Assembly: GCA_003220315.1 (NCBI GenBank)
Contig: QHSA01000133.1
Span: forward strand, 14,843 to 78,842
DNA: 64,000 nucleotides
Source of the DNA: Candidatus Rokuibacteriota bacterium
GTDB lineage: Bacteria; Methylomirabilota; Methylomirabilia; Rokubacteriales; CSP1-6
Reading direction: 5' to 3'
Positions 7,268 through 61,691 of the stretch are shown here, piece after piece. A program made the translations under genes and the position numbers. The number at the start of each line of letters is the position of its first letter. Position 1 is the first letter of the stretch. The notes beneath the pieces are model-generated. The model did no database searches. It was not told the DNA's origin and saw only the letters and a program-made list of their open reading frames with translations.

Positions 7268-7391
7268 AGGCTCGCCTCGCACGGCGGGGCCGATTTGTAT
7301 CGCTCGCCTCGGGCCTGGGGGCCCCAGCCCCCGGTCGGCCCTGCGGCTCGCCCTGCGGCCCCGCGACGTGCTGCGGCTCGCACTGCCATCC
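7264..7391 (-). repeat. R2-family intergenic element forming a 41-codon mini-ORF between livG and livF
   Basis: ATG 7389 lies 2 nt after the livG stop (TGA 7392-7394). The mini-ORF MAVRAAARRG...PPCEASL ends with TGA 7264-7266 overlapping the livF ATG (ATGA). Shares CTGCGGCTCGCACTGCCATC and GGCGAGGCGAG blocks with 14117-14228 and 23602-23868. Confidence 0.7.
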
Positions 7392-13014: not shown

Positions 13015-14120
13015 TGGATCGCCTTCCGCCACATCGGCGAGGCCCACCCGTCCCGGAGGAACGCAAGAATCTCGCGCCGGCTCAGGTCGCCGAGCCCCAG
13101 GTGCTCGAGCGCGCGGCCGCGGCCCGAGAGCTCGCGCCCGAGCAGCGCGCCGTACACGAGAAGGAGCCCCGTGATCGCGGGCGTCACCGCGCCCGCCGCC
13201 CGCGCGGCCGACTCGAGGAGCGCCAACCCGAGAACCGCGTCCTCGGTGACGTAGCGGTGCTCGAACGTGACGATCTCGCTCCAGAGGCCGCTCGCCACGA
13301 GTTTCGTCTTCGCCCCGGCGCCGTAGAGCCCCTCGGCCGCCCGCGTCTCGTCGTAGTACGTCGCGAGCTCGTAGTGGGGCGCCGCGTAGCCCCAGCCCCG
13401 GCGAGTCGCGACCCGCTCGGCGTCCACGGCGTCGATGAGCCGGCGCACGCTCGGCGTCGTGCCAGCCGCGTGGACGTCGAAGCTGCCACCGTCGATCGCG
13501 CCGGTATTCAGGAGAACGAGCGGGGGGTGGATCACGGGCCCGGCGTTGGTGAGCGCGACATCGAGGGAGTCCGCGCACGGGCGGACGGCCGGGAAGAGCT
13601 CGGCGAGCCGCGGCAAGACGCGCGGGCCCCGCGACGCGGGAAACACGCCGATCGGCAGGTTGGCGGCGCGCAGGGGCGCCTTGACGACCGCGGGCGCCGT
13701 CTTCCGCGTGAGATAGGGCAGCGTCCCGGTCTCGGCGAGGGCGAGCGGTAAGGGGCCGCCGGCGCGCGCAATCCCCCGCGCCATCGCGTAGCTACCGAGC
13801 GTTCCCGGTGTGAGCAGGATGATCTGTCGGTCGTTGAGACACGGCGCCAGGCGCTTGGCGAGCTCCTCGTGGCTCGTCGCGGGTAGCGGGACGATCAGGA
13901 CCTCCGCGCCCTCGACCGCCTCGCCGAGGTCGGTCGTGGCGCGCTCGAGCTGCGCCGTCCCGTGCCGCCCCTCGGCGTCGAGCGTGATCGTCGCGCGCTC
14001 CACGAGCGGGCCGAGCGCGTCCGCCGAGCGGCTCCAGAGCCTGACGCGGTGGCCGGCCAGCGCGAGATCGGCCGCCGTCGCGAAGCCACCATTGCCCGCG
14101 CCCAGGACTGCTAGCTTCAC
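13011..14120 (-). CDS. NAD/NADP-dependent octopine/nopaline (opine) dehydrogenase family oxidoreductase
   Basis: GTG 14120 gives MKLAVLGAGNGGFATAADLALAGHRV, a classic Rossmann N-terminus of the opine dehydrogenase family. The GTG is overlapped by the TGA of the R2 mini-ORF. Confidence 0.7.
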   Translation of the reverse strand: MKLAVLGAGNGGFATAADLALAGHRVRLWSRSADALGPLVERATITLDAEGRHGTAQLERATTDLGEAVEGAEVLIVPLPATSHEELAKRLAPCLNDRQIILLTPGTLGSYAMARGIARAGGPLPLALAETGTLPYLTRKTAPAVVKAPLRAANLPIGVFPASRGPRVLPRLAELFPAVRPCADSLDVALTNAGPVIHPPLVLLNTGAIDGGSFDVHAAGTTPSVRRLIDAVDAERVATRRGWGYAAPHYELATYYDETRAAEGLYGAGAKTKLVASGLWSEIVTFEHRYVTEDAVLGLALLESAARAAGAVTPAITGLLLVYGALLGRELSGRGRALEHLGLGDLSRREILAFLRDGWASPMWRKAIQ

Positions 14121-14228
14121 AGACTCGCCTCGCCTGTGGCTGCGGCTCGCACTGCCACGACGTTCATAAGCTCGCCTCGCACGGCGGGGCCCCAGCCCCA
14201 CGACGTGCTGCGGCTCGCACTGCCATCA
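14117..14228 (-). repeat. R2-family element forming two chained mini-ORFs (20 and 16 codons)
   Basis: The CoA-transferase TGA (14226-14228) overlaps ATG 14226 (TGATG). Mini-ORF1 MAVRAAARRGAGAPPCEASL ends with TGA 14164-14166 overlapping ATG 14167 of mini-ORF2 MNVVAVRAAATGEASL. Its TGA 14117-14119 overlaps the GTG 14120 of the next gene. Confidence 0.7.
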
Positions 14229-20378: not shown

Positions 20379-20652
20379 TGTAGCGAAGTCCGCGAGGCCG
20401 GCGCCATCGGTGGGTGGCCTGAGACCAGGCGCGACCCGGCTCCGGTCCCCATGTCGTGTCTCATTCCAACAGGGTCCGCGAGGCCGGCGCCAGCGGTGGG
20501 TGGCCGTCGGACTGACCGCCCTTCGAGCGCGGGCTTCGCCCGCGCAACCGATCCTGGGGGAGGCTCGGAGGGGGCCGTCGAGGCCCCCTTCGATGAGGTG
20601 GGTGGCCTGAGACCAGGCGCGACCCGGCTCCGGTCGTCCCGGCGCTATTCAT
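20375..20652 (-). repeat. R1-family element (two units, the distal one interrupted by a nested R3 element) forming 63- and 29-codon chained mini-ORFs
   Basis: ATG 20652 lies 2 codons before the metallophosphoesterase TAG (ATGAATAG). Mini-ORF1 reads through R1-partial, R3 and R1 to TGA 20461-20463, which overlaps ATG 20464 of mini-ORF2 (MRHDMGTGAGSRLVSGHPPMAPASRTSLQ). Its TGA 20375-20377 overlaps GTG 20378 of the B12 subunit. Confidence 0.75.
20496..20607. mobile_element. R3 MITE-like element (92 bp) with 10-bp direct target duplication GTGGGTGGCC, nested in R1
   Basis: Insert 20506-20597 flanked by GTGGGTGGCC at 20496-20505 and 20598-20607. Two internal hairpins (GCGCGGGC-TTC-GCCCGCGC; GGGGGCC-GTCGA-GGCCCCC). 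A near-identical copy (3 differences) sits at the same position of a diverged R1 at 27445-27556. Confidence 0.7.
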
Positions 20653-21124
20653 TCGGGAGCTCGAGGATGCGGCCCCGCACGCGCCCATCCTCGACGGTGA
20701 GTCGTCCCACTGCCACGGGAAGCTTGAAGCGGCGGGGGCCGGCGCTTCCCGGATTGAAAAACAGCACGCCGTCCCGCTCCTCCTGCCGCGGCTGGTGACT
20801 GTGGCCGGAAATGACCACGCCGAACCCCGCCGCGCGCGGGTCAAGGCCCAGCGCCGTCACGTCGTGCAGCACGTACAGGAGCACGCCCCCGATCTCGAGA
20901 ACCTGAGTGGACGGAACCTTCTCGGCCCACGCGCCGCGATCATTGTTGCCACGAACGGCCGTCACCGGCGCGATCGCGCCGAGTCGCTCCAGCACGTCCG
21001 GCGTGCCGATGTCCCCGGCGTGGACGATCGCATCGACGCCCCGGAGCGCCACGACCGCCTCGGGCCTCAACCGTCCGTGAGTGTCGGAGATAACGCCCAC
21101 CGATCGCACGCGCGAGCCGCTCAT
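20645..21124 (-). CDS. Metallophosphoesterase (YfcE/MJ0936 family)
   Basis: 159 aa from ATG 21124 (ATGA overlap with upstream DUF35 gene); GVISDTHG ... GDIG ... GNND ... GHSH motifs. Confidence 0.8.
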   Translation of the reverse strand: MSGSRVRSVGVISDTHGRLRPEAVVALRGVDAIVHAGDIGTPDVLERLGAIAPVTAVRGNNDRGAWAEKVPSTQVLEIGGVLLYVLHDVTALGLDPRAAGFGVVISGHSHQPRQEERDGVLFFNPGSAGPRRFKLPVAVGRLTVEDGRVRGRILELPNE

Positions 21125-21549
21125 GCCGGGGCGAACGCCGGCAGCCATCGGGCGTTGCCCTTGGGGTCGTCGGCGACGCGAAGCGGCGCGAGCCGGACGC
21201 GCTGGCCGATCCTGAGCGCCGCCGGGTCGGCGTCGACGAGGGCCGTGAAGACCCGATGGACGTCGACCTTCACGATCGCAAAGACGCGCGGCCCGTCGAA
21301 GCCCGCGGGAAGCCCCGCCTCCTGCAGCGTGAAGGCGTGGAGCGTTCCCTCGCCCGGGAGGTCCACCCATTCGAACCGGTCCGACGCGCACTCGCCGCAG
21401 AAGCCGCGGGGTGGCCACGCCGTCGTGCGGCAGTCGCGGCAGCGGGTGGTCATGAGCCGCCCCGACGCCAGGCGCGTGTAGAACTCGTGAAGCTTCGTGT
21501 GGTCCGCCGACTCCAGCGGGAAGGGGTCGACCGCGCGGAAATAGGTCAC
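21121..21549 (-). CDS. Zn-ribbon/OB-fold protein (DUF35 family, thiolase-associated)
   Basis: GTG 21549 (GTGA overlap); CRDCRTTAWPPRGFCGEC zinc ribbon followed by an OB fold; the family normally partners SCP2-type thiolases. Confidence 0.75.
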   Translation of the reverse strand: MTYFRAVDPFPLESADHTKLHEFYTRLASGRLMTTRCRDCRTTAWPPRGFCGECASDRFEWVDLPGEGTLHAFTLQEAGLPAGFDGPRVFAIVKVDVHRVFTALVDADPAALRIGQRVRLAPLRVADDPKGNARWLPAFAPA

Positions 21550-22645
21550 GCGCCGACCACCGGCCACTTCGACTCGATGGGGAGTCCCGCGCGCGCGATC
21601 TGCCGCCGGGCGAGCTCTTCCACACGTGCGTAGAGCGCCTGCTCGTCGAGCGTCGTGAGCCGCCCCTCGTCGAGGACGATCCGCCCGTCGATCAGCACGG
21701 TCCGCACACTCGCGCCCGTCGCCGCGTAGACGAGGTTGTTCAACGGATTGAGGAGCGGGCGCCACTCGGGAGTGTCCAGGTCGTAGAGCACCAGGTCGGC
21801 GCGCTTGCCCCGCTCGATCGAGCCGATCTCGCGCTCGAGCAAGAGCGCCGCGGCGCCGTGGAGCGTCGCCATCTCGAGGACGCGCTCGGGGCCCATCACG
21901 CCCACGTCGAGGCGCGCGTCCTTGGAGATCGTGGCGGTGAGGTACATGAGCCGCAGCATGTCGAAGTGGTTCGAGCCGTTCCCGCTGTCGCCCCCGAGCG
22001 AGACCGAGACGCCGGCGTCGAGCATCTCGGGGAACCGGCCGTGGGCGACGAGCCCCTTCGTGTGCTTGAGCGCCGCCGACGGGCAGTGAGAGACCTTCAC
22101 GCCACGCGGACCGCGGCGAGCATCTCCTCGTTCGCGCGGAGCGCGTCGGCCGTGGTCTGGCGCATCCGTCCGGATCCGCCCGCGAGGTCCCACGACCAGC
22201 GCCCGAGGATCGCGCGCATCCCGATCGCCTCGACCGCGTCGGCGACCGCCGCGACGTCGAAGAGCGTGCCCGCCTCACAGAAGGTCGTCGTCCCCGTGCG
22301 GATCATCTCGACGCACGCGAGCTGCGCGGAGACCTGCTCCTCCTCCGGGGTCATGACCGCGTAGAGCGGGATGAGCCAGTCGGGGAGGTAGCGGTCCACC
22401 GGGATGTCGTCGAGGAGGAGGCCGCGATTCAAGTGCTCCGAGAGGTGGACGTGCGTGTCGACGAAGCCGGGGAGCACGAGGCGTCGGCGACCGTCGATCA
22501 CCCGGTCGGGCGCACGCGGCGGCCGCACGTCGACGGCGGGGCCCACGTCCACGATGTCCCGGCCGTCCACGAGCACGGCGCCGTCGCGCAGGATGCGCCG
22601 CTCGCGGTCCACGGTGACGACGGTCGCGTGCTCGATGAGGATCAC
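21546..22645 (-). pseudogene. Amidohydrolase (chlorohydrolase / MTA-SAH deaminase family) disrupted by an internal ~75-aa deletion with frame change
   Basis: Frame A 22097-22645 encodes the N-terminal half, from the HxH metal site region (FVDTHVHLSE) to ...RANEEMLAAVRVA*. Frame B resumes at GTG 22100 with VKVSHCPSAALKHTKG (the HxPxSNxKL region) and continues to 21546. The segment that should carry two metal-ligand His motifs is absent. The fragment junction is a GTGA overlap. Confidence 0.5.
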
Positions 22646-23604
22646 TGGTACGCAGCGTCCTCTCGCACCCGCCTGAGCTGCCGGAGCAGCGCACGGACCT
22701 TGGCGGTCTCGAACGTCTCGCGCCGGTCGCCGGCGTAGTCGAAGAACCCGCGCCCCGTCTTCGGGCCGAGCTCTCGCCTCGCGATCTTCTCCTCGACCAG
22801 GCGCGCCGGCTTGAAGCGGTCGTCACCGAGCGCGTCGGCGAGGAAGCGGCTCGCACGGTGGAGGATGTCCACGCCGCCCCAGTCGATGAACTCGAAGATC
22901 CCGACCTGCGCGTAACGGAAGCCCATCCCCGCCCTGAACGCCCGGTCCACGTCCTCGGGCGACGCGACGCCCTCCTCGACGAGGCGGACCGCCTCGTTCA
23001 TGAGCAACGCCTGTAGCCGCGGCCCGATGAACCCCGGCGAGTCGGCGCACCGCACGGGGACCTTCCCGAGCGCCTCGAGGACCTCGATGGCGCGGTCGAC
23101 GACGGCGGCCGTGGTCGCCTGGCCGGCGACGACCTCCACGAGCGGGACGATGTGGGCGGGGTTGAGCCAGTGCGCGACGAGGAAGCGCTCCGGACGCTCT
23201 ACCGCGTCGGCGAGGTGCCTGGGCGCGATCGTCGAGCTCGTCGAGGCGATGATCGCCCCGGCGCCGACGCGGGTCGAGAGGCGCCCCAGCACCTCGCGCT
23301 TGAGGTCGAGCAGCTCCGGCAGCGCCTCCTGCACGAAAGCGCACGCGTCGAGGCCGTCGAGCCCCGTGCGGTCCTCGATCCGGTCGAGCGCCGACGCGAC
23401 GTCGCCGCCCGCGATCACACCCTCCTCGGTCATGAGCCGGAGGTCGCGGGTGATCTCGCGCCGCGCGTCGGCGAAGACGGCGCGCCGCTCCTCGGGCGTG
23501 CGGGCCTTGACGTCGACGAGGAGGACACGGCGCCCGCCCAAGGCGAAGGCGAGCGCGATCTGGCGCCCGATCCTCCCGGGGCCGAGAACCGCGACTGTAT
23601 TCAT
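22642..23604 (-). CDS. 3-hydroxyacyl-CoA dehydrogenase (NAD-binding, HBD/FadB-type)
   Basis: MNTVAVLGPGRIGRQIALAFALGG Rossmann N-terminus; C-terminal 3HCDH dimerisation domain; ATG 23604 is the last start of the R2 tandem array. Confidence 0.9.
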   Translation of the reverse strand: MNTVAVLGPGRIGRQIALAFALGGRRVLLVDVKARTPEERRAVFADARREITRDLRLMTEEGVIAGGDVASALDRIEDRTGLDGLDACAFVQEALPELLDLKREVLGRLSTRVGAGAIIASTSSTIAPRHLADAVERPERFLVAHWLNPAHIVPLVEVVAGQATTAAVVDRAIEVLEALGKVPVRCADSPGFIGPRLQALLMNEAVRLVEEGVASPEDVDRAFRAGMGFRYAQVGIFEFIDWGGVDILHRASRFLADALGDDRFKPARLVEEKIARRELGPKTGRGFFDYAGDRRETFETAKVRALLRQLRRVREDAAYQ

Positions 23605-23868
23605 AGACTCGCCTCGCCGGCGGCTGCGGCTCGTACGACCACGTTCATAGACTCGCCTCGCCGGCGGCTGCGGCTCGTACGACCACGCTCATAGACTCGC
23701 CTCGCCGACGGCTGCGGCTCGTACGACCACGTTCATAGACTCGCCTCGCCGACGGCTGCGGCTCGTACGACCACGTTCATAGACTCGCCTCGCCGGCGGC
23801 TGCGGCTCGTACGACCACGTTCATAGACTCGCCTCGCCGACGGCTGCGGCTCGTACGACCACGTTCAC
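23602..23868 (-). repeat. R2-family 44-bp tandem array (6 ATG units plus 1 GTG unit), each unit a 15-codon mini-ORF
   Basis: Unit CATAGACTCGCCTCGCCG(G/A)CGGCTGCGGCTCGTACGACCACG(T/C)T at 44-bp period, with start codons at 23604, 23648, 23692, 23736, 23780, 23824 (ATG) and 23868 (GTG). On the minus strand each unit reads (M/V)NVVVRAAA(A/V)GEASL-TGA, with the TGA overlapping the next ATG (ATGA). The thiolase TGA (23865-23867) overlaps the first GTG; the last TGA overlaps the dehydrogenase ATG. Confidence 0.85.
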
Positions 23869-25034
23869 GCCGGTTCGCGCCCGTAAATCATCACGACGTG
23901 CTCGCCCATCCCGCTGTTGTTGTGCGTGAGCCCGATCGCCGCGCCGGGCACCTGGCGGGCGCCGGCCTCGTCGCGGAGCTGGACGAAGACCTCCGCCGCC
24001 TGGGCGACGCCGGTGGCGCCGAGCGGGTGACCGCATCCGATCAGCCCGCCGCGCGGGTTCACGACCACGTCGCCGCCGTAGTCGCCGCGCCCCGCGGCGA
24101 CGAACGCGCCCGCCTCGCCCTTGCCGCAGAAGCCGAGCTCCTCGCACGCAATGAGCTCCGCGATCGCGAAGCAGTCGTGTACCTCGGCGAGGTCGACCTC
24201 GCGCGGCGCGATGCCGGCCATCCGGTACGCGGCCTGCGCCGCACGCCTGAGCGCGGGCCACTGGGCGTAGTCCTCGTGGAGCGAGGTGAGCTGGAAGCCG
24301 TCCAGCGCCTGGCCCGTCCCTCGGATCCAGACCGGCTTGTCGGTCAGCCCGCGCGCCCGCTCCTCGCTCGCGAGGATCACCGCCGCGGCGCCGTCGGTGA
24401 TCGGCGAGCACATGAACAGGCGCAAGGGCGTCGCGATCATCCGCGAGCCGAGCACCTGGTCGAGCGTGGCGCCCTTGTTGAAGTGGGCGTTCGGGTTCTT
24501 GGCGGCATGGGTATGGTTTTTCACGCCGACCATCGCGAGCTGCTCCTCGGTCGTCCCGTACGCGGCCATGTGGCGCTGGGCCGCGAGCGCGAAACAGGGC
24601 GGCGCCGTGAGCCCGAAGGCCGCCTCCCACTCGCGGTCCACCCCGGTGCCCATGTTGAGGATCGCCTCCTCGCCCGTCGGCGCGTTGAGCTTCTCGACGC
24701 CGAGCACCATGACGAGGTCGGCGAGCCCCGCGGCGATGAAGGCGTACGCGTAGCGGATCGCGACGGTGCCCGAGGCGCACATGTGCTCGGTCCGCGCGCT
24801 GAGCGCGCTCGGCTTGATTCCGAGCGCCTCGGCGGCGAGCGAGGAAATATGGGACTGGAAGGCCGTGCGCTCCGGCATCACGGAGCCGACGACGAGACCC
24901 TCGACGTCCTTCGGCTTCACCGCAGGGATCGAGTCGAAGCACGCCTTGCCCGCCTCCCAGATGAGGTCGCGGTAGCTCGCCCGGCGCACGCCGAACTTCG
25001 AGACCCCCGCGCCGACCAGCGCGACTCGTCTCAT
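23865..25034 (-). CDS. Thiolase-like protein (SCP2-type thiolase / lipid-transfer protein family)
   Basis: 389 aa; MRRVALVGAGVSKFG N-terminus; active-site Cys region (EHMCASGT); C-terminal GCGHPLGATG. Confidence 0.9.
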   Translation of the reverse strand: MRRVALVGAGVSKFGVRRASYRDLIWEAGKACFDSIPAVKPKDVEGLVVGSVMPERTAFQSHISSLAAEALGIKPSALSARTEHMCASGTVAIRYAYAFIAAGLADLVMVLGVEKLNAPTGEEAILNMGTGVDREWEAAFGLTAPPCFALAAQRHMAAYGTTEEQLAMVGVKNHTHAAKNPNAHFNKGATLDQVLGSRMIATPLRLFMCSPITDGAAAVILASEERARGLTDKPVWIRGTGQALDGFQLTSLHEDYAQWPALRRAAQAAYRMAGIAPREVDLAEVHDCFAIAELIACEELGFCGKGEAGAFVAAGRGDYGGDVVVNPRGGLIGCGHPLGATGVAQAAEVFVQLRDEAGARQVPGAAIGLTHNNSGMGEHVVMIYGREPA

Positions 25035-27344: not shown

Positions 27345-27625
27345 TGTAACGGGGGCCGCGGGGCCGCCACACTCCGTGGGTGGCCTGAGACAAGGCGCGA
27401 CCCGGTTCCGTTCCGTAACGGGGGCCGCGGGGCCGCCACACTCCGTGGGTGGCCGTCGGACCGACCGCCCTTCGAGCGCGGGCTTCGCCCGCGCCACCGA
27501 TCCTGGGGGAGGCTCGGAGGGGGCCGTCGAGGCCCCCTTCGATGAGGTGGGGGGCCTGAGACGAGGTGCGACCCGGGCCCGTTCGGCACGCCGCCGCGTT
27601 TCATTCCACCGGGCGCGGCACTCAT
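27341..27625 (-). repeat. R1-family element (two units, the distal one carrying a nested R3) forming a 94-codon mini-ORF
   Basis: ATG 27625 overlaps the hyuB TGA (ATGA); the ORF reads through R1, R3 and R1 (…HLVSGPPPHRRGPRRPPPSLPQDRWRGRSPRSKGG…RLVSGHP…) to TGA 27341-27343, which overlaps the ACAD ATG 27344. Confidence 0.75.
27445..27556. mobile_element. R3 MITE-like element (92 bp) with 10-bp target duplication (GTGGGTGGCC / GTGGGGGGCC), nested in R1
   Basis: Insert 27455-27546; differs from the 20506-20597 copy at 3 positions, whereas the flanking R1 sequences differ extensively. Confidence 0.7.
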
Positions 27626-29427: not shown

Positions 29428-31487
29428 TCCAACTCCACCAGGAGACTCGCGTACTCGTCCACAGCCGCCGAGGCGCCGGGCGGAAGGACGGTCGTGGACT
29501 CGCGCTCCTCCACGATCGCCGGCCCCGTGAGGCGCGCCCCTGCCGCGAGCGCGTAGCGGTCGTAGACCGGCGTGTCCACGTAGCCGCGCGCCTCGGGAAA
29601 GTAGGCGCGACGGCTCCCCTTCACCGCGCGGCCACGGTCCTCGGTCTGCGCCTTCGCGAGCGCGATGCGGGGCGAGCCGCCGACCGCCGAGAGCTTCCAC
29701 GTGACGACCTCCACGGGCTCGCGCGGGTTCGCATAGCCGTAGCGGGCGGCGTAGACCTCGTCGAACGTCGCGCGCACCCGGGCGAGCGCGGCGGCGTCGA
29801 GCTCGCCCGACGGCACGGGAACGGTCAGCTCGTACCCCTGGCCCACGTAGCGCGCGTCGGCCGAGCGCGCCACGTGGATCTCACCGGCGACGGCGGACTC
29901 GCGGACGACCTCCGTCGCCTGCCGCGCCATCTCCGCGTACATCCGACCGAGCTGCGCGAGATCCACGGCGTCGAGCCGGCGGACGTAAGTGCGCGCCACG
30001 TCGAACCGGAGCTCCGCGGCCAGCAGGCCGATCGCGGCCGTGACCCCGGCGGCCGCGGGGAGAATCACGCGCGGGATGCCGAGCGCCTGGGCGAGTCGGC
30101 AGCCGTGCACGGGGCCCGAGCCGCCGAAGGCGACGAACGTGAGGTCGCGCGGGTCGCGGCCGCGCTCGATCGAGACCACGCGGGTCGCCAGCTCCATGTT
30201 GGTGGTGACGATCGCGTGGATCCCCCACGCCGCGTCCTCGAGCGACAGGCCGAGCGGCGCCGCGACCTTCGTCTCGATCGCCCGCGTCGCCGCCGCCGGC
30301 TCGAGCTTGACCGAGCCGCCCGCGAAGTAGTCGGGGTTGATATAGCCGAGCACCACGTTCGCGTCGGTGACCGTGGGCTCGACACCACCGCGCCCGTAGC
30401 AGACGGGCCCCGGCACCGACGAGGCGCTCTCCGGGCCCACGGCGATCACGCCGAGCCGCGCGCGGGCGATCGAGCCGCCGCCCGCACCGATCTCGACGAG
30501 GTCGATCGCCTGAATGTTCATCGGCAGGCCGCTGCCCGGGGCGTTGTTGACGCGGTGGAGCTCGAACGCCGTCGTCGTGGAGGGCCGCCCGCGCTCGACG
30601 AGTGCGAGCTTGGCGGTCGTGCCCCCCATGTCGAACGCGATCAGGTCGCGGTGGCCGGTGAGCTCGCCGTACGCCGCCGCCATCAGGGCGCCCGCGGCGG
30701 GACCCGACTCGATCATCCGCACGGGGTAGCGCTGCATCGCCTCCGCCGTCGCGACGCCGCCGGAGGACTGCATGACGAAGAGCCGGCCCCGGTAGCCGCG
30801 CTCGGCCAGGGCGGCGGCGAGCCCGCGCAGGTACTCGCGCACGGCCGTCATCACGTAAGCGTTGACCACGGTCGTCGAGGTCCGCTCGTATTCGCGGAAG
30901 GTCGGCGACACCTCGTGCGACATCGTCACCGTCACGTGCGGAGCCTCTTCTCCGACGATCTCCGCCAGGCGCCGCTCGTGGAGGGGGTTCAGGTACGCGT
31001 GCAGGAGGCAGATCGCGAGGGTCGTGACCTCGCGCGCGACGAGCTCGCGGACGGCCCGACGGGCGTCGGCCTCGTCGAGCGGGCTCCGCACCGAGCCGTC
31101 CGCCAGGACGCGCTCGGTCACCTCGCCGATCAACCGGCGAGGGATCAGCGGCGCGGGCTTCTCGATCTGGAGGTCGTAGACCTGGTAGCGCTTCTCGCGC
31201 CCGATCAGGAGCACGTCGCGGAAGCCCCGCGTGGTGAGGAGCCCGACGCCTCGCGCCTTGCGCTCGATGACGACATTGGAGCCGAGTGTCGTCCCGTGGA
31301 CCGCCTGGGCCACGTCGCGCCACGTGACACCGCTCCGGGCGACGAGCTCGTCGAGCCCCGCGAGGCAGGCCTCGGAGGGGTCCGGGTAGGTCGTCAGCCG
31401 CTTCGCGATGAGGAGCTCCCCCGACGGCGACTGCAGCACCAAGTCGGTGAACGTCCCCCCGACGTCGAACCCGATCCGGTAGGGCAT
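29424..31487 (-). CDS. hyuA: Hydantoinase A / 5-oxoprolinase subunit (HyuA family)
   Basis: 687 aa; MPYRIGFDVGGTFTD N-terminus; ATG 31487 overlaps the TAA of the R1 mini-ORF (TAATG). Confidence 0.9.
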   Translation of the reverse strand: MPYRIGFDVGGTFTDLVLQSPSGELLIAKRLTTYPDPSEACLAGLDELVARSGVTWRDVAQAVHGTTLGSNVVIERKARGVGLLTTRGFRDVLLIGREKRYQVYDLQIEKPAPLIPRRLIGEVTERVLADGSVRSPLDEADARRAVRELVAREVTTLAICLLHAYLNPLHERRLAEIVGEEAPHVTVTMSHEVSPTFREYERTSTTVVNAYVMTAVREYLRGLAAALAERGYRGRLFVMQSSGGVATAEAMQRYPVRMIESGPAAGALMAAAYGELTGHRDLIAFDMGGTTAKLALVERGRPSTTTAFELHRVNNAPGSGLPMNIQAIDLVEIGAGGGSIARARLGVIAVGPESASSVPGPVCYGRGGVEPTVTDANVVLGYINPDYFAGGSVKLEPAAATRAIETKVAAPLGLSLEDAAWGIHAIVTTNMELATRVVSIERGRDPRDLTFVAFGGSGPVHGCRLAQALGIPRVILPAAAGVTAAIGLLAAELRFDVARTYVRRLDAVDLAQLGRMYAEMARQATEVVRESAVAGEIHVARSADARYVGQGYELTVPVPSGELDAAALARVRATFDEVYAARYGYANPREPVEVVTWKLSAVGGSPRIALAKAQTEDRGRAVKGSRRAYFPEARGYVDTPVYDRYALAAGARLTGPAIVEERESTTVLPPGASAAVDEYASLLVELE

Positions 31488-31567
31488 TATTGGTGGCCTG
31501 AGACGAGGTGCGCCCCGGCTCCGTTCCGCCCGCCGCTTCCCATTCCAGCGAGCCGCAAGGCCGGCAT
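31487..31567 (-). repeat. Single R1 unit forming a 26-codon mini-ORF between the GntR gene and hyuA
   Basis: ATG 31567 lies 1 nt after the GntR TAG (31569-31571); MPALRLAGMGSGGRNGAGAHLVSGHQ-TAA, with the TAA overlapping the hyuA ATG. Confidence 0.65.
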
Positions 31568-33012: not shown

Positions 33013-33051
33013 GGCGCCTCGGCGTTCATCGGCTCGCTTCGGACGGCGGGG

Positions 33052-34200
33052 CTAGGCGCGCACCAGCTCGCGCGCGATCACGACCCGCTGGATCTGGTTC
33101 GTGCCCTCGTAGATCTGCGTGATCTTGGCGTCGCGCATGAAGCGCTCGACGGGATACTCGCGCGTGTAGCCGTAGCCGCCGAAGATCTGCACGGCGTCCG
33201 TCGTGACCCGCATCGCCGCGTCGCCCGCGAAGCACTTGGCCATCGACGACTCGAACGCCGTGCGGGGAGCGCCGCGGTCCAGGAGCGCTGCGGCGTGGTG
33301 GACCATGAGGCGCGCCCCGTGCGTCTGCATCGCCATGTCCGCGAGCATGAACTGAATCCCCTGGAAGGCCGCGATCGGCTGGCCGAACTGCTGCCGCTCT
33401 TTGGCGTAGGCGACGGCGGCGTCGAGCGCGGCCTGGGCGATCCCCACGGCCTGGGCGCCCACGGCCGGGCGCGAGCCGTCCAGGACGCGCAGCGCGATCC
33501 TGAACCCCTCGCCCTCGTCGCCGAGACGGTTCTCGACGGGCACCTCGCAGTCGCTCAGATGGAGCGCAACCGTCGGGGACCCGCGAATCCCCAGCTTGCG
33601 CTCGAGCTTGCCGAGGGCGAACCCGGGGAACGTCGGCTCGACCAGGAACGCGGTGACCCCGCGGTGGCCCTTGCCGCGGTCCACGGTGGCGAAGAGGGTG
33701 ATGACGCCGGCGTGACTGCCGTTCGTGACCCACATCTTGGTCCCGTTGAGAAGGTAGCGGTCGCCCCGGCGCACGGCGGTCGTCGTGAGCGCGCCGGCGT
33801 CGGACCCGGCGCCAGGCTCCGAGAGGGAGAACGCCGCGGTGATCTCGCCCGCAGCGAGCCGCGGCAGGTAGCGCCGCTTCTGCGCCTCGCTGCCTGCCGT
33901 GACGATCGGGAACCCGCCGGTGTACTGGACGAGATAGATGACGGCGGTGGACGCACACGCCCAGGCAATCTCCTCGACCGCCAGGCAGAAGGCGAGCGCG
34001 CCGAGCCCGGCGCCGCCGTAGGCCTCGGGGATGTAGAGCCCCATGAGCCCCTGCTCGCCGAGTGACGTGAGCTGGTCGGTCGGATACGTCTCCGTCTCGT
34101 CCACCTGCGCGGCGAGTGGCGCGACCCGTTCGCGGGCGAGAGCCCGGACGAGGTCGCGCACCTGGCGCTGCTCGGCGGTCAGATCGAAGAGGTCGCGCAT
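33052..34200 (-). CDS. Acyl-CoA dehydrogenase
   Basis: Start ATG 34200 ([14 protein letters not shown]); about 65% identical to the ACAD at 2148-3296. Confidence 0.9.
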
Positions 34201-37319: not shown

Positions 37320-38593
37320 TCGAGTTCCTCGCGCTCCCGTTCCTCGCCTGCCTCGTGCTCACCGCGATCCACGTCTACCTCGGGCTCCACGTGCTCGCGC
37401 GTGGCGTCATCTTCGTGGACCTGGCGCTCGCCCAGACGGCGGCCCTCGGGATCACCGTCGCCCTCCTCGCGGGCCACGCGATCCAGAGCGACGCGGCGTA
37501 CTGGTACGCGCTCGTCTTCACACTGGCGGGCGCCGGGCTCTTCGCCGTGAGCCGGACACATCGCGGACGTGTTCCGCAGGAGGCCCTCATCGGTATCGTC
37601 TACGCGGTGTCGGCTGCGGCGGCCGTGCTCGTCGTGGATCGGGCCCCGCAGGGGAACGAGCACATCAAGCAGCTCCTGGTGGGAAGCATCCTGACGGTCA
37701 CGGGGGACGAGGTGCGCGCGCTCGCCCTCCTCTACGCCCTGATCGGCGCCATTCATTGGGTCGTGCGCCGCCCGCTCCTCCGCATCTCGTTCGACCCGAA
37801 CGGCGCCGCCGGGCGGCACGCGGTCCGCGCGTGGGACTTCGTTTTCTACGCCTCGTTCGGGCTGGTGGTGACCAGCTCGGTGCGAGTCGCGGGCGTGCTC
37901 CTCGTCTTCTCGTACCTCGTCGTGCCCGCGACGGTGGGGGCGTTGCTCACGGGCTCCGTGCGCGGCCGCCTCCTCCTCGGCTGGGCCGCGGGCGCCGGGG
38001 TGAGCGCCGCAGGGCTCGCGGCCTCCTACGCCTGGGACCTCCCGACCGGCGCCACCGTGGTCACGACCTTCGGCGCGTTGCTCGCCGTGGTCGGGCTGGC
38101 GCTCGCGGCGCGCGGGCTCGGCCGCGCGGTCCGGACGCGCGGCGCCTCGGCGCTCCGCTCGCTCGGCGCCGGCGCGTGCGCCCTCGTCGCGCTTGCCGGA
38201 CTCCTCGTGGCGCTCTTCCCGCGAATGGACCATGTCTGGCTCGACTGGATCGAGGCGCCCCTGCCCGTCGTCGAGCTCGCGTTCCTCACGCCGCGGGAGC
38301 GCGAGACGTACCGCGAGAGCCACGCGGCGATCGCGCAGGCCACCGCCGACCTCGCGCGGCTACGCGCGCTGCAGCAGGAGGTCCTGTGGGGCGCCCGAGC
38401 GATGCCCGAGGAGACGACGGAGCGGCTCAGGCAGTTCGTGGCGGGCCGGAGCGAGCTCACGGCTGGCGACCGGATGGTGCTACGCACCCTGCGGACCAGG
38501 GCCCGCGAGCGCCAGCGCTACTGGATCGGCGTCCCGTTGCTCCTCGCCGGTGCCGTCGGCGCCCTCGTCCTCGCGCGCGCCCGCCGCGTCTAA
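37316..38593 (+). CDS. Metal ABC transporter permease (ZnuB family) with ~140-aa C-terminal cytoplasmic extension
   Basis: GTGA overlap with the SBP gene; 8 predicted TM helices followed by an Arg/Glu-rich helical tail; no ATPase gene adjacent. Confidence 0.8.
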   Translation: MIEFLALPFLACLVLTAIHVYLGLHVLARGVIFVDLALAQTAALGITVALLAGHAIQSDAAYWYALVFTLAGAGLFAVSRTHRGRVPQEALIGIVYAVSAAAAVLVVDRAPQGNEHIKQLLVGSILTVTGDEVRALALLYALIGAIHWVVRRPLLRISFDPNGAAGRHAVRAWDFVFYASFGLVVTSSVRVAGVLLVFSYLVVPATVGALLTGSVRGRLLLGWAAGAGVSAAGLAASYAWDLPTGATVVTTFGALLAVVGLALAARGLGRAVRTRGASALRSLGAGACALVALAGLLVALFPRMDHVWLDWIEAPLPVVELAFLTPRERETYRESHAAIAQATADLARLRALQQEVLWGARAMPEETTERLRQFVAGRSELTAGDRMVLRTLRTRARERQRYWIGVPLLLAGAVGALVLARARRV

Positions 38594-38597
38594 CCCG

Positions 38598-38690
38598 TGC
38601 GTCGGAATCACCGCTGTTCGAGCGCCGGCTCCGCCGGCGCAACCGATCCGGGGGGAGGCATCGGAAGGGGGGCGAAGCCCCCCTCCGAGT
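38598..38690. repeat. R3-like hairpin element at convergent gene ends (probable bidirectional terminator)
   Basis: GTCGGAATCACCGCTGTTCGAGCGCCGGCTCCGCCGGCGCAACCGATCCGGGGGGAGGCATCGGAAGGGGGGCGAAGCCCCCCTCCGAG; same architecture as R3, with compensatory stem changes (GCGCCGGC/GCCGGCGC versus GCGCGGGC/GCCCGCGC). Confidence 0.6.
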
Positions 38691-38693
38691 TAC

Positions 38694-39548
38694 CTAGCCC
38701 GTGTAGGCGTAGAAGCCGCGGCCCGTCTTCCGTCCGAGGTGGCCCGCGATCACCATGCGCTTGAGAAGCGGCGGCGGCGCGTAGCGAGGCTCGCGGAACT
38801 CCTCGAACATCACCTCGGCGACGTACATCGCGGTGTCGAGCCCGACGAGGTCCAGGAGCGTGAACGGCCCCATGGGGTAGCCACAGCCGAGCTTCATCGC
38901 CGTGTCGATGTCCTCGAGCGAGGCGAGGCCGCTCTCGTAAAGCCGGACCGCGTCGAGCAGGTACGGCACGAGCAACCGATTCACGATGAACGCCGTCGAG
39001 TCCTTCGTCTGGACCGGGGTCTTGCCGACCGCGCGGACCCACTCGGTCGCCGTCGCGACCACCGCCTCGTCGGTCAGGATCGTCCGCGCCACCTCCACGA
39101 GCTTCATCAGCGGCACGGGGTTGAAGAAGTGGAGCCCGAGGACCTGGCGGGGGCGCGTGGTCGCCGCGGCCAGGGCCGTGACGTTGCACGACGAGGTGTT
39201 GGTCGCCAGGATCGCGTGGGGCGGGCAGATCCGGTCGAGCTTCGCAAAGGTCTCGTTCTTGAGCTGCTGGTTCTCCGTCATGGCCTCGACGACGAGGTCG
39301 CACCCCTTGAGGTCCTCGAGTCGCGGCGTGCCGCCGATGCGCGCGAGCGCGGCGTCTTTCGTGGCGGCGTCGAGCTTGCCCTTCGCCGCGAGCCCCTCGA
39401 AGACCTCACGGAGCCGGCTGAGGCCCCGCTTGACCAGCTCGGCACTCGCCTCGACGAAGAGCACGGGGAACCCCGCCTGGGCCGCGACCTGGGCGATGCC
39501 CGAGCCCATGAGACCACAGCCGATGACGCCGACGTTTTTGATGGTCAT
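38694..39548 (-). CDS. 3-hydroxybutyryl-CoA dehydrogenase
   Basis: MTIKNVGVIGCGLMGSGIAQVAA Rossmann N-terminus; full-length 3HCDH. Confidence 0.9.
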   Translation of the reverse strand: MTIKNVGVIGCGLMGSGIAQVAAQAGFPVLFVEASAELVKRGLSRLREVFEGLAAKGKLDAATKDAALARIGGTPRLEDLKGCDLVVEAMTENQQLKNETFAKLDRICPPHAILATNTSSCNVTALAAATTRPRQVLGLHFFNPVPLMKLVEVARTILTDEAVVATATEWVRAVGKTPVQTKDSTAFIVNRLLVPYLLDAVRLYESGLASLEDIDTAMKLGCGYPMGPFTLLDLVGLDTAMYVAEVMFEEFREPRYAPPPLLKRMVIAGHLGRKTGRGFYAYTG

Positions 39549-55360: not shown

Positions 55361-56052
55361 CGCTCAGGGAGTTCTTCACGGCCGCGGCTCCGCCACGCCA
55401 CGCGCTCGCCCGCCTGTTTCGGGGACTCGGGGGTCGCTCGCCACGGCTCGAACCGCTCGCCGATCGATTCCGCATTGAGGCGAGCGACCACGGCGTGACG
55501 CGCCTCCGACCGGGGCGGGGCCTCGGCGCGGCGTCCCCACGCGCCCGCGGCCACGCCGAGCAGGCGCGCGAGGAGCTCCGCGAATACCTCGCGGGCCGCC
55601 GGACGTTCTTTCGGGTCCCCCTGGACCTCGACGGGGTGCCCGAGTTCCAGGCCACGGTGCTGGCGGAGGCCGCGCGCATCCCGTTCGGCGAGGTCGTCGC
55701 GTACGCGACGCTCGCGCGGCGCATCGGCCACCCACGCGCCGCGCGCGCCGTCGGCAACGCCCTCGGCAGGAATCCGGTGCCCGTGATCGTCCCCTGCCAC
55801 CGGGTCGTCCGCGGGGACGGGAGCTGGGGGCACTACGCCTTCGGCCACGCGATGAAGACGTTCCTGCTCGGGCTCGAGCGCGCGACGCCGCTCCTCGTCG
55901 GCTGCGCGACGAGCCGGATCGTCTGCCGACGCGGCTGCGCGCACGAGCGGCGTGTCGCCGAGGGGAATCGCGTCGTCTTCGCCTCGCTCCGCGACGCGCG
56001 GAGCGTCGGCTACCGCCCCTGCCGCGTGTGCCGGCCGGCCCGCGTCGCGTGA
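55345..56052 (+). CDS. Methylated-DNA-protein-cysteine methyltransferase (Ogt) fused to a C-terminal Ada-type Cys4 zinc domain
   Basis: Overlaps the sigma gene by 16 nt (anti-sigma position). Ogt DNA-binding domain with PCHRVV active site. C-terminal CRRGC...GYRPCRVCRP matches the Ada N-terminal methylphosphotriester-repair zinc motif. Confidence 0.7.
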   Translation: MDLDLTLREFFTAAAPPRHALARLFRGLGGRSPRLEPLADRFRIEASDHGVTRLRPGRGLGAASPRARGHAEQAREELREYLAGRRTFFRVPLDLDGVPEFQATVLAEAARIPFGEVVAYATLARRIGHPRAARAVGNALGRNPVPVIVPCHRVVRGDGSWGHYAFGHAMKTFLLGLERATPLLVGCATSRIVCRRGCAHERRVAEGNRVVFASLRDARSVGYRPCRVCRPARVA

Positions 56053-56090
56053 TCGGCGGCTTGCCGTGATCGGCCGCGTGCTAGGAGCGT

Positions 56091-56220
56091 GTCGGAGAAA
56101 GGGCTGTCGACCGGGGTTCGAGCGCCGGCTTTGCCGGCGCACCGATTCCTCGGGGGTTCGCTCCCTCTCGGGAGCGCTCCCCCGGCCTCGGAGGGGGCCG
56201 TCGCGCCCTTAGGGCGCGCC
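56091..56220. repeat. R3-like hairpin element (extended variant)
   Basis: GTCGGAGAAAGGGCTGTCGACCGGGGTTCGAGCGCCGGCTTTGCCGGCGCACCGATTCC...CTCGGAGGGGGCCGTCGCGCCCTTAGGGCGCGCC; shares the TTCGAGCGCCGGC-loop-GCCGGCGC-ACCGAT core and GGAGGGGGCC hairpin with other R3 copies. Lies in frame with the downstream gene, giving a spurious N-terminal extension. Confidence 0.55.
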
Positions 56221-56250
56221 TGTGAAGTCGCCCCCGCCGACTCTGCTAGG

Positions 56251-57084
56251 ATGCCGACGATGACGGCCCGCGGCTCGCTCGTCTCGTTCGCCGTCGCGCT
56301 GCTCCTGGTCGGCGGCCCACGGCCGGCCGCCGCCCAGTACCCGGTCTTCGACGCCCACATCCACTATAGCCGCCCCGACTGGGACGCGTACCCGCCGGAG
56401 CGCGCGCTCGCCCTCCTCGCTCGGGCGGGTGTGCGTCGCGCGCTCGTGTCGAGCACGCCCGACGACGGCACGCTCAAGCTCTACGAGCGCGCGCCGACGG
56501 TGGTCGTGCCGTTCCTCCGGCCCTACCGCAGGCGCGAAGACATGGGCGGCTGGCACGCAGACGCGGGCGTTGCCGAATACGTGGAGGAGCGACTCAAGCG
56601 CGGTATCTACCGCGGCATCGGCGAGTTCCACCTCGGTGGCGCCGACGTGGACGCGCCCGTCGTCCGGCGGATCGCCGAGCTGGCGGCGGAGCGCGACCTG
56701 TTCCTGCACGCCCACGTGGACGCCGACACGATCGAGAAGCTCCTGGCGCGCTACCCGAAGGTCCGCTTCCTCTGGGCCCACGCGGGCATGTCGGCGGACG
56801 CCAGGACCGTCGGCCGGCTGCTCGACCGATTCCCGAAGCTCTGGGTGGAGCTGGCGCTCCGCAGCGACGTCGCGCCGGGCGGCCGGCTCGACCCCGAATG
56901 GCGCGCGCGCTTCCTGCGTCACGCCGATCGTTTCATGGTCGGGACCGACACGTGGGTGACTTCTCGCTGGGAGGCCGTCGAGTCCTCCACGCGGGACGTC
57001 CAGGAGTGGCTCGCCGAGCTCCCGGCGGAGGTCGCCGAGCAGATCGCGTGGAGGAACGGCGCGCGTCTCTTCCCGGCGCCTTAG
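56251..57084 (+). CDS. Amidohydrolase-2 family (TIM-barrel metal-dependent hydrolase), secreted
   Basis: Signal peptide; FDAHIHY metal motif; HAHVD and WAHAG motifs. Confidence 0.7.
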   Translation: MPTMTARGSLVSFAVALLLVGGPRPAAAQYPVFDAHIHYSRPDWDAYPPERALALLARAGVRRALVSSTPDDGTLKLYERAPTVVVPFLRPYRRREDMGGWHADAGVAEYVEERLKRGIYRGIGEFHLGGADVDAPVVRRIAELAAERDLFLHAHVDADTIEKLLARYPKVRFLWAHAGMSADARTVGRLLDRFPKLWVELALRSDVAPGGRLDPEWRARFLRHADRFMVGTDTWVTSRWEAVESSTRDVQEWLAELPAEVAEQIAWRNGARLFPAP

Positions 57085-60143: not shown

Positions 60144-60149
60144 TCGTCG

Positions 60150-60200
60150 GGTGGAGCGGCGCCGCTCCCCCCAACGCCCCCCACCAGATCAGAGGGGGCG
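60150..60200. repeat. Partial R3-like hairpin element at convergent gene ends, overlapping the 3' coding end of the flavoprotein gene
   Basis: GGAGCGGCGCCGCTCC palindrome, then GAGGGGGCG-AGG-CGCCCCCTC hairpin and CCGAGCCGGCGCTCGAC (reverse of the R3 core); the last ~15 codons of the TcuA-like gene lie in it. Confidence 0.5.
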
Positions 60201-61691
60201 AGGCGCCCCCTCCGAGCCGGCGCTCGACGCCGCCGAGCGCCCCGCGATCCGGCCGAACACGGCGCCCGCCATGAGGCCGGCGCCACCCGGATAGTTGTGG
60301 TAGAAGAGCCCGCCCACGAGCTCGCCGGCCGCGAAGAGCCCGGGAATCGGCCGCTGCTCGGTGTCCACGACCTGCGCGACGTCGGTGATGCGGACGCCGC
60401 CGAACGTGAACGTGATGCCGGTCGTGACCGCGTAGCCGACGTAGGGCGGCGCGTCGAGGGGGAGCGCCCAGTTCGACTTGGGCGGCGCGATCCCGCGCGT
60501 GCGCTTGCCGTCCTTGATCGCCGGGTTGAACGCGCCGGGCATGACGGCGGCGTTGAAGGCCGCGACCGTGCGCAGGAACCCCTCGACGTCGATCTCGAGC
60601 TTCCGCGCCAGGCCCTCGAGCGTCGGGTCCTCGGCCTTCGTCACCTCGCGGATCCGGTACTCCTCCCGCAGCAGGTGGAGAACCTTCGCGTCGAAGATCT
60701 GAAACGCGGCGCGCCGCGGCTGCTCGATGACCGCGCGTCCGTACTTCACGTAGGTGTAGTTGCGGAAGTCGGCGCCCTCGTCCACGAAGCGCTCGCCGCG
60801 GAGGTTCACGATGAGTCCCAGTGGGTACGAATGCTTCTGAAAATTGTCGCCGACCTTCCGGTCGCCGTGCCACGGCGCGTTTAGATCCCACTGGACGGCG
60901 TGGCAGCCGCTCCAGTGGCCCCACGGGAGCGCGCCGATCTCGAGCGCCATCCGGATGCCGTCGCCCGTGTTGTACGGCGTGCCGCGGACGCGGGCGAGGT
61001 CCCAGTTGCGGCCCAGATAGCGCGTGCGCATCTCGGGGTTCGCCTCGAAGCCGCCCGCCGCAAGCACGACGGCCCGCGCCGGGATGGTCTCCGCGCCCGC
61101 CGGCGTCCGCACGGCGATGCCGGTCACCGCCCCACGGTCGTCCGTGAGAAGCCGTATCGCCTTCGTCTCGAAGCGCACGTCGATCCCGGCCTTGGCCGCC
61201 GCCTGGTACTCCATGTCGATGAGTCCGGGCCCGCCGCCCACCGCCTCGAGGACCAGCCCGCCCCAGAACCTGAATCGCCCGTCGACCTTGTAGGCCTGAC
61301 GGCCGAACATCGGGATCCAGCGGACGCCGCGGTCCCGCATCCACCGGACCGTCGGCTGCGACTGGCGCACGAGCAGCATCGCCAGGTCGGGGTCGGCGCA
61401 GTCCTCGGTGACGCGCATGAGGTCGTCGTAGAACGTCTCCTCGGTGTACGGATCGACCTCCATCGACGCCTTCTCCTCGTCGGACAGATCGCCGACGAGG
61501 TCACACAACTCCTCGAAGCTCTTGAAGGCGAACCGGAAGCCGCCCGCCGTGAAGAAGCCGTTGCCCCCGCGCCACGCCTCCGGCGCCTTCTCCACGACGA
61601 GCACGCGCGCGCCCGCCTCGCGCGCGGAGAGGGCGGCGCACATGGCGGCGTTGCCGCCCCCGACCACGACGACGTCGTACACGGCGGGCAC
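60189..61691 (-). CDS. FAD-dependent oxidoreductase (tricarballylate dehydrogenase TcuA / fumarate-reductase flavoprotein-like)
   Basis: N-terminal VVVVGGGNAAMCAALSARE dinucleotide fold; 500 aa. Confidence 0.85.
   Translation of the reverse strand: MPAVYDVVVVGGGNAAMCAALSAREAGARVLVVEKAPEAWRGGNGFFTAGGFRFAFKSFEELCDLVGDLSDEEKASMEVDPYTEETFYDDLMRVTEDCADPDLAMLLVRQSQPTVRWMRDRGVRWIPMFGRQAYKVDGRFRFWGGLVLEAVGGGPGLIDMEYQAAAKAGIDVRFETKAIRLLTDDRGAVTGIAVRTPAGAETIPARAVVLAAGGFEANPEMRTRYLGRNWDLARVRGTPYNTGDGIRMALEIGALPWGHWSGCHAVQWDLNAPWHGDRKVGDNFQKHSYPLGLIVNLRGERFVDEGADFRNYTYVKYGRAVIEQPRRAAFQIFDAKVLHLLREEYRIREVTKAEDPTLEGLARKLEIDVEGFLRTVAAFNAAVMPGAFNPAIKDGKRTRGIAPPKSNWALPLDAPPYVGYAVTTGITFTFGGVRITDVAQVVDTEQRPIPGLFAAGELVGGLFYHNYPGGAGLMAGAVFGRIAGRSAASSAGSEGAPRPL

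Follow-up and report, generated by a model that had tools for sequence, protein, structure and literature searches.

A two-hairpin repeat at gene ends of Candidatus Rokuibacteriota, probably a short non-autonomous mobile element

What is a strongly folded 94-nt sequence doing exactly between the stop codons of two convergent genes in an uncultured, very GC-rich bacterium? The sequence, which we call R3c, lies near 38.6 kb in a 64,000-nt stretch of Candidatus Rokuibacteriota DNA (GenBank assembly GCA_003220315.1, contig QHSA01000133.1, positions 14,843 to 78,842; hereafter the window), whose G+C content is 70-74% throughout and is taken below as 72%. It is preceded by an ABC-3 family permease gene on the + strand (TAA stop, 38591-38593) and followed by a 3-hydroxybutyryl-CoA dehydrogenase gene on the - strand (TAG stop, read as CTA at 38694-38696). 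The original prediction, made from the sequence of the window alone, held that R3c and its relatives there (collectively R3) act as bidirectional terminators at operon boundaries, and that paired substitutions in their stems betray selection on RNA folding. Its description of R3c was accurate: both hairpins are where it placed them, the copy does lie between convergent stops, and a G/C exchange on both arms does separate it from two copies nested in another repeat, R3a and R3b, which read GCGCGGGC-TTC-GCCCGCGC and GGGGGCC-GTCGA-GGCCCCC. For the function of R3 we reach a different answer, and hold it with high confidence, namely that R3 is a short (~90-160 nt), non-coding and non-autonomous mobile repeat family of Candidatus Rokuibacteriota, resembling MITEs (miniature inverted-repeat transposable elements), with mosaic behaviour like that of repetitive extragenic palindromic (REP) sequences and their BIME assemblies.

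Filled and empty sites

Evidence for insertion comes from comparing occupied sites with their unoccupied counterparts in close relatives. For R3c, six long contigs, including one that belongs to a Rokuibacteriota assembly, carry dehydrogenase homologues with 94% amino-acid identity in an unchanged gene order. In these loci the dehydrogenase and permease genes overlap by 4 nt, a single CTAG providing the stop of both (...gctgcggCTAGCCCGTGTAGGCG...), and a stretch present once in the relatives (within ...gcggCTAGCCCGTGTAGG...) occurs on both sides of the element in the window, as CTAACCCGTG-(94 nt)-CTAGCCCGTG. This is a 10-bp target-site duplication with one later G-to-A change, which keeps the permease stop codon. 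BLAST alignments of the six relatives (L239-L244) likewise consist of two blocks at 91-92% identity, with a 10-nt overlap on the side of the relative and window positions 38600-38693 covered by neither, and the R3 covariance model R1, described below, has no match in these orthologous loci.

A second site is that of R3d, a rearranged copy at 56.1 kb. In two syntenic relatives (L247 and L248, 85-89% identity) the Ada-like and amidohydrolase genes that flank it are at most 25 nt apart, and the junction reads gcgtgGTGAGGAgac and gcgtgATAGGAtcc, respectively, where the window has TGCTAGGA-(157 nt)-TGCTAGGA. Just upstream (56044-56079), the window also carries a tandem duplication of ~17 nt (cgtgatcggcggcttgc / cgtgatcggccgcgtg) that takes in the Ada-like gene's TGA stop; L247 and L248 each have this sequence once. 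The third comparison uses the 86-nt repeat R86, which hosts R3a and R3b at equivalent positions: uninterrupted R86 units read ...GGTGGGTGGCCTGAGACC..., while filled units carry GGTGGGTGGCC on either side of R3. By direct sequence comparison, R3 copies are shown to be insertions at three independent sites, with duplications of 8, 10 and 11 bp, and by the same comparison they are recent in this lineage.

A dispersed family with conserved hairpins and a preferred target

Beyond the window, R3 was sought first in a genome collection with the pattern TTCGAGCGC N9-13 GCGC N1-2 CCGATYC, which proved too loose, as 4 of 118 loci were real and the others were mostly chance matches in unrelated GC-rich genomes. 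The real copies lay in three Candidatus Rokuibacteriota assemblies and one unclassified assembly, and all three matching loci in Rokuibacteriota assemblies held an R3 copy. Soil metagenome contigs were searched with the linker between the hairpins as the only query, leaving both hairpins free, which returned at least 120 contigs with the linker and ~95 distinct R3 copies among the matches listed; since these copies were chosen by the linker motif, linker conservation among them is by design. Of these contigs, several match the window at 98-99.8% identity and so come from its population, and the sources assign the closest relatives of the flanking proteins to Rokuibacteriota or Rokubacteria.

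We built model R1 from 24 metagenome copies (two hairpins plus a 3-bp outer helix) and ran it on the window with filters off. In 0.86 Mb of metagenome contigs, themselves picked for holding a copy, it identified 130 copies, ~30 of them without the exact linker; in the window the density is three full copies and one rearranged copy per 64 kb. A pattern search for R3 in the window gave 6 matches against 0.48 expected, a similarity far above chance. The two hairpins (19 and 28 nt) always occur together in a conserved core of ~77 nt, and the linker and the G-run that follows it are common to the full copies of the window (with one mismatch in the 27.4-kb copy) and, slightly varied, to the copies in Rokuibacteriota genomes. 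The left arm of the element is variable in length and sequence. No match to R3 was found by blastn among plasmids, no Rfam 15 family reached its gathering score anywhere in the window (at the locus the best weak match reached 13.9 bits, where 52 is required), and a literature search for repeats of Rokubacteria found none. Judged by these searches, R3 is an abundant dispersed repeat family of Candidatus Rokuibacteriota that was previously undescribed.

Copies combine in a mosaic fashion that includes nesting within R86, variants in which one more hairpin separates the G-run from hairpin 2 (7 of 78 distinct copies), inverted doublets around a conserved 66-nt spacer, and tandem arrays at some loci, gene ends included. 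The doublets (L164 5600-5850 and 6205-6455; also in L120, L159, L174 and L119) consist of a GAA-type R3 on the - strand, the spacer, a GTCGA-type R3 on the + strand and GCAGATGGGCCCTTATC; the two in L164 bracket a 350-nt segment and may form a larger composite repeat. Elsewhere, R3 is flanked by gene-junction duplications of 28 to ~59 nt (L153 2500-2680, L177 1530-1700, L206 1400-1900, L125 6760-6990), the duplicated junctions being the overlapping stop and start of ABC ATPase genes and the sucC-sucD junction, with flank and R3 amplified together in tandem in L206 and L125. Two further contigs, L146 and L162, match the right flank of R3c at 99% identity and then, within R3, switch to the left arm and flank of an L171/L198-type site, which on sequence would reflect copies that have recombined or, alternatively, a chimeric assembly at the repeat. 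In L087 (5590-5760), at the start of a phosphomannomutase-like gene, R3 separates a possible ATG from the conserved IFRAYDVRG motif, and no stop codon interrupts that frame over the short stretch read by eye; translation of R3, or displacement of the start codon by it, is therefore possible.

Pairing within the hairpins is conserved across the family. In an alignment of 98 distinct copies, 97.0% of stem cells hold standard pairs, compared with 91.1 +/- 0.3% after shuffling and 34-56% with slid partners, and 12 of 23 pairs have changed on both sides (3.7 +/- 1.1 shuffled, at most 6 with slid partners), figures to be read knowing that the structural alignment was fitted to model R1 and that the shuffle control overstates significance because the copies are related by descent. 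The hairpin-1 loop is free to vary (TTC in 28 copies, TTT in 27, TCC in 26) while a perfect 8-bp hairpin-1 stem is kept in 76 of 95 copies, which points to constraint on the hairpins themselves. To this extent the earlier argument from covariation to selection on structure stands. The two swaps that it cited, which are the two common ones, carry a caveat: with C-G outnumbering G-C by 59 copies to 32 in hairpin 1, and G-C outnumbering C-G by 62 to 25 in hairpin 2, they are biallelic subfamily markers and not site-by-site evolution at the loci of the window. All four combinations of hairpin types are seen (in 33, 15, 12 and 5 copies), indicating either recombination among copies or repeated change.

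The family is also markedly selective about where it lies. Among 74 distinct flanks, 30 have a reverse-strand stop codon, heading a long frame with high G+C at third codon positions (GC3), 2-8 nt past the right end of R3 (mostly 5-6 nt); cruder gene calls gave similar adjacency at the right end, and the left end has no such tight spacing. The base before the adjoining stop is C or T in 29 of these 30 cases, compared with 233 of 588 background genes (Fisher p = 1e-10), and at ~21 of 22 sites once evident orthologues are collapsed by eye. The same preference appears when no genes are called: 19 of 71 copies (27%, background 0.4%) have CTAG, and 38% have YTAR (background 0.7%), no more than 9 nt from the right end. 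Stop usage beside R3 (TAG 17, TGA 9, TAA 4) is not far from that of background genes (TAG 249, TGA 303, TAA 36). The idea that the element carries the stop codon with it was rejected on this near-background usage and on the position of the stop, which lies in the duplicated target. There are 17 CTAG sites in the window, several of which coincide with called gene ends.

The simplest reading of these flanks is that the insertion machinery prefers CTAG-like sites and uses them with fixed polarity. Because CTAG-like motifs in DNA of 72% G+C are mostly stop codons, this would explain the position of R3 at gene ends, and because the duplicated target starts at the stop codon, the gene would keep its end. 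Such a target likewise accounts for the position between convergent stops without any terminator.

R3 copies and other repeats in the window

Coordinates are collected in Table 1. Five copies had been counted in the window; under model R1 its content is three full copies (R3a, R3b and R3c), one rearranged copy (R3d) and one borderline diverged relative (R3e).

Table 1. R3 copies, their parts and flanks, and R86 units in the window
Feature	Position	Strand	Description
R3c	38600..38693	+	full-length, 94 nt; 97.5 bits (covariance model); order: left arm CGTCGGAATCACCGCTG, TTCGA, hairpin 1, AACCGATCC, GGGGGGAGG, hairpin 2, GTTAC
R3c hairpin 1	38622..38640	+	GCGCCGGC-TCC-GCCGGCGC
R3c linker and G-run	38641..38658	+	linker AACCGATCC, then G-run GGGGGGAGG; both unpaired
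R3c hairpin 2	38661..38688	+	TCGGA-A-GGGGGGC-GAA-GCCCCCC-TCCGA; 12 pairs, one bulged A
R3c left target-site duplication	38590..38599		10 bp, CTAACCCGTG; provides the present TAA stop of the ABC-3 permease gene
R3c right target-site duplication	38694..38703		CTAGCCCGTG; stop and last codons of the 3-hydroxybutyryl-CoA dehydrogenase gene (- strand)
R3a	20506..20596	+	91 nt, inside R86; 65.4 bits
R3a flanking duplication	20495-20505 and 20597-20607		11 bp, GGTGGGTGGCC
R3b	27455..27545	+	91 nt, second nested copy, equivalent position in another R86 unit; 61.4 bits
R3b flanking repeats			cGTGGGTGGCC and GGTGGGgGGCC; 9/11 identical
R3d	56087..56243	+	rearranged, 157 nt; 31.7 bits, 5' (hairpin-1) half only
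R3d target duplication	56079..56086 (left) and 56244-56251 (right)		8 bp, TGCTAGGA
R3e	60147..60218	-	probable diverged R3-like element; 18.3 bits, whole-window E 0.026, aligns full-length
R86, two units	10529-10700		perfect tandem
R86 unit	20390-20475		
R86 unit	20476-20663		R3a inside
R86 unit	27356-27594		R3b inside
R86 unit	31469-31554		

R3d had been described as a variant extended by a third hairpin. It does have extra hairpins, although its bounds differ from those given and its structure is more disrupted: the left end and hairpin 1 are kept, an extra nested hairpin follows, and hairpin 2 is split by another hairpin; the model matches only the first half of R3d.

R3e had been taken for a partial + strand copy covering the last 15 codons of tcuA, at 60.2 kb. 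On that strand the model gives no significant match (8.5 bits, whole-window E 3.4), whereas on the - strand it aligns full-length, in the layout TCGGA, hairpin, C-GATC, G-run, hairpin, CCGA, with both stems exchanged for different complementary sequences and the C-GATC linker and G-run in place. Its right end (CCCGACGA) adjoins CTAA on its own strand; a methyltransferase gene ends there in TAG with a T before it, in keeping with the rule of a pyrimidine before the stop. With its borderline score, R3e is at best a diverged relative of R3 on the opposite strand.

The overlap with tcuA amounts to the stop codon and the last 9 codons. The left hairpin of R3e encodes SEGAPRPL and the stop (window 60189-60218), with which the TcuA protein ends (...GRIAGRSAASSAGSEGAPRPL, then stop). 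Among 58 TcuA homologues, which end 11-20 residues past the GRIAG motif (most of them 11-16), none has this tail, and the sole other protein that has it is 99% identical to the TcuA of the window. The absence of the tail from all 58 homologues suggests that the insertion replaced the original tcuA stop, which would have rewritten the C-terminus of the protein. An empty R3e site was not obtained, the relatives fetched having other genes downstream of tcuA.

The host of R3a and R3b, R86 (...GGTGGGTGGCCTGAGACCAGGCGCG...CTCATTCC...), lies in spacers upstream of - strand genes, and each unit ends in TCATTCC, which on the - strand gives GGAATGA, a start codon overlapping a stop; in this it resembles the MIRU-type junction repeats of mycobacteria. 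A separate tandem array at 23556-23907, between two - strand genes, comprises ~8 copies of a 44-nt unit that are 82-98% identical, with related single units near 14116-14190, 7254-7290 and 33016-33052. Since several other - strand genes are immediately preceded by sequence like this unit, what the array repeats appears to be a gene-start region. Finally, 263 nt of coding sequence present in three contigs 99% identical to the window (L145 at 9408-9670, L221 and L227) are absent from the window at 22106, where two open reading frames overlap (21546-22193 and 22097-22645); the missing sequence and the overlap together indicate a gene probably broken by a deletion or by an assembly difference.

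The kind of element and its consequences

Measured against the definition of MITEs that we used (PMC3184786), R3 has the size (91, 91, 94 and 157 nt as bounded by duplications, where MITEs are mostly below 200 bp and in some cases reach ~400, and too short for a transposase gene), the target duplications and empty sites (10 bp at R3c, 8 bp at R3d, 11 bp at R3a and R3b) and the copy number (4 copies in 64 kb, and the 130 model matches in contigs chosen for R3), and it lacks terminal inverted repeats and a known parent insertion sequence. The likeness to bacterial MITEs such as the Correia elements (CREE) of Neisseria, ERIC/IRU, RUP and MITEAba12 is broad: all are under 200 nt, non-coding and dispersed in many copies, with target-site duplications, stable stem-loops, a location at gene ends and presence or absence between related lineages. 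R3 differs in having 5-6-nt subterminal TCGGA/TCCGA in place of long terminal inverted repeats, two different internal hairpins instead of one long fold-back, a duplication length that ranges from 8 to 11 bp, and no related insertion sequence identified. With the REP/BIME elements of Enterobacteria and Pseudomonas, which are associated with RAYT proteins, it shares GC-rich extragenic palindromes, often between convergent genes, that form mosaics and doublets; unlike these, it duplicates its target and forms a ~95-nt two-hairpin unit with a conserved unpaired linker.

Insertion sequences of the IS481 and IS5 families also target CTAG-like sites (NCTAGN, YTAR) and duplicate the target; they are autonomous, have terminal inverted repeats and make mostly shorter duplications (4-6 bp). 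Going by such general descriptions only, R3 is like them in duplicating targets of the CTAG type, scarce in GC-rich genomes and found mainly at stop codons, and unlike them in that CTAG stands at one edge of an 8-10-bp duplication. The Rickettsia palindromic elements (RPEs) and enterobacterial RU are small palindromic repeats that can reach into a reading frame, as R3e does with the last 8 residues and stop of TcuA; RPEs typically lie in frame within genes, whereas R3 lies overwhelmingly just outside the stop codon. R3 is a new family of a familiar kind, MITE-like or REP-like, with a distinctive CTAG/stop-codon target.

Several observations weigh against this assignment. Long terminal inverted repeats are absent from R3, which has just the subterminal 5-6-nt TCGGA...TCCGA, with TCGGA in the left arm of 17 of 87 copies (background 2.8%). 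No autonomous partner or transposase was identified, the reading frames between an inverted R3 pair in L201 having been listed without a protein-family scan. When flanking direct repeats were sought across the whole family, the observed distribution was close to that of mismatched flank pairs, and a test anchored on the stop codon gave 6 of 30, weakly enriched over the 10% expected, most copies having no recognisable duplication; since the general search lies so near its control, target duplications are shown for individual sites and not for the whole family. Duplication length varies as well (8, 10 and 11 nt, with 28-59-nt gene-junction duplications at a few copies), a spread that a single DDE transposase would not usually leave and that may be a sign of some other insertion mechanism. 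An RNA-level role for R3 is also possible.

On the reading as a mobile element, R3 inserts with fixed polarity, its right end (...CCCCCCTCCGA-GKTAM) coming to lie beside a CTAG-like motif (YTAG/YTGA/YTAA). At 72% G+C such motifs would be found almost only at pyrimidine-preceded stops, so that R3 copies would build up directly 3' of genes, where two stops converge and where operons meet, and the target duplication would regenerate the stop codon, and sometimes the start region, allowing both neighbours to survive. The hairpins would most likely be kept as transposition-competent copies need them, either as folded DNA or as protein-binding palindromes, for a transposase acting in trans. Once inserted, they would join the 3' untranslated region, where, like REP elements, they may make transcripts more stable or cause partial termination. 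A stronger version, in which R3 represents a new type of non-autonomous transposon without terminal inverted repeats, one whose two internal hairpins serve for recognition, which targets CTAG-type stops and which acts as a mobile 3'-untranslated-region module, is speculative and in our view doubtful.

The rival that the locus itself brings to mind is the one proposed originally, that R3 is a host-selected structured RNA, acting as a bidirectional factor-independent terminator or a 3'-end stabiliser at operon boundaries, with covariation reflecting selection on RNA folding. We consider this unlikely. In its favour, a pair of strong hairpins forms on either strand (-51 to -56 kcal/mol, z -1.7 to -2.7), compensatory changes accompany the conserved pairing, a stop codon precedes the element by 2-8 nt in the 30 of 74 flanks described above, and of the 58 copies for which both neighbours were called, 23 have a convergent setting (the others being 23 (-,-), 10 (+,+) and 2 divergent). 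Yet neither hairpin is followed by a U-tract on either strand, the sequences after them being AACCGATCC and GAGTTACC on the + strand and TGCCTCCCC and TCGAACAG on the - strand, and an intrinsic terminator scan found no site at 38.6 kb. Both strands of R3 fold about equally well, and G-U and A-C mismatches are balanced overall (23 vs 26), the outer helix favouring the - strand (16 A-C) and the main stems slightly the + strand (19 vs 9), so wobble pairs give no usable signal for the strand of a putative RNA; together with the empty Rfam search, this leaves the step from covariation to a host RNA unsupported. Position argues the same way. Copies occur in either orientation relative to transcription, in codirectional contexts and within co-expressed pairs such as sucC-sucD and the overlapping ABC ATPase genes, where a strong terminator would be harmful; the orthologous sites in relatives have 4-nt overlapping stops or a 25-nt spacer and no hairpin, indicating that a 3'-end hairpin effect is not needed at the R3c and R3d loci; and adjacency to the stop depends on the base before it, which points to a DNA target and not to termination. 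Mobile REP elements also stabilise mRNA (PMC3184786), and effects of REP/BIME elements on mRNA 3' ends are regarded as possible (PMC3184786, PMC2817692), so that a secondary role is compatible with mobility, and a weak stabilising or partly terminating effect of R3 is possible by analogy.

Could R3 instead spread without a dedicated transposase, through template switching during replication or illegitimate recombination at stalled hairpins, copying an R3 from another site and duplicating a variable stretch of target? The range of flanking duplications (8, 10, 11, 28, 28 and ~59 nt), the lack of a real terminal inverted repeat, a left arm that differs in length and sequence, and the amplification of R3 in tandem together with its flank would all suit such a process, which we nevertheless regard as improbable: the strong polar preference for CTAG-like motifs, at a set distance of 4-6 nt from the right end, has the appearance of targeting by a sequence-specific enzyme, and the three best-defined events have similar short duplications.

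More improbable still is mobilisation of R3 as single-stranded hairpin DNA by a RAYT (IS200/IS605-like Y1) transposase, as for REP/REPIN elements. GC-rich extragenic palindromic units, many between convergent genes, inverted doublets with a conserved spacer in BIME-like mosaics, and the conservation of hairpin pairing in place of a long terminal repeat speak for it. Y1 transposases (IS200/IS605 family) are not known to make target duplications, so the clear 8-11-bp duplications at three independent sites, where a REP element would insert duplication-free, argue against this mechanism; furthermore, the two hairpins are unlike each other, the unit is ~95 nt long compared with 20-40 nt for REP, and no conserved GTAG-type 5' tetranucleotide is seen in the R3 alignments. 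An integron attC site or tRNA-like element was discarded, as copies are scattered among housekeeping genes and no core-site or tRNA-like pattern was seen.

The preferred reading of R3 as a mobile repeat has several consequences. Covariation within a repeat does not by itself imply a host regulatory RNA, and a false lead is removed here. For practical work on this uncultured phylum, the description of R3 is testable through its covariance model, boundaries, target motif and duplication length, and repeats of this type break or mis-join metagenome assemblies and cause spurious extensions of reading frames and altered C-termini, such as the TcuA tail. Targeting of CTAG-type stops explains the pile-up of such elements at gene ends in very GC-rich genomes, and filled and empty sites in close populations provide a natural experiment on how a strong hairpin placed 5 nt after a stop affects expression. 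If R3 truly is a mobile 3'-untranslated-region module, each insertion would separate overlapping genes and give the upstream gene a structured 3' end, as a stabiliser or partial terminator, would occasionally supply a new C-terminal tail, as in TcuA, and would reshape operon boundaries across Rokuibacteriota.

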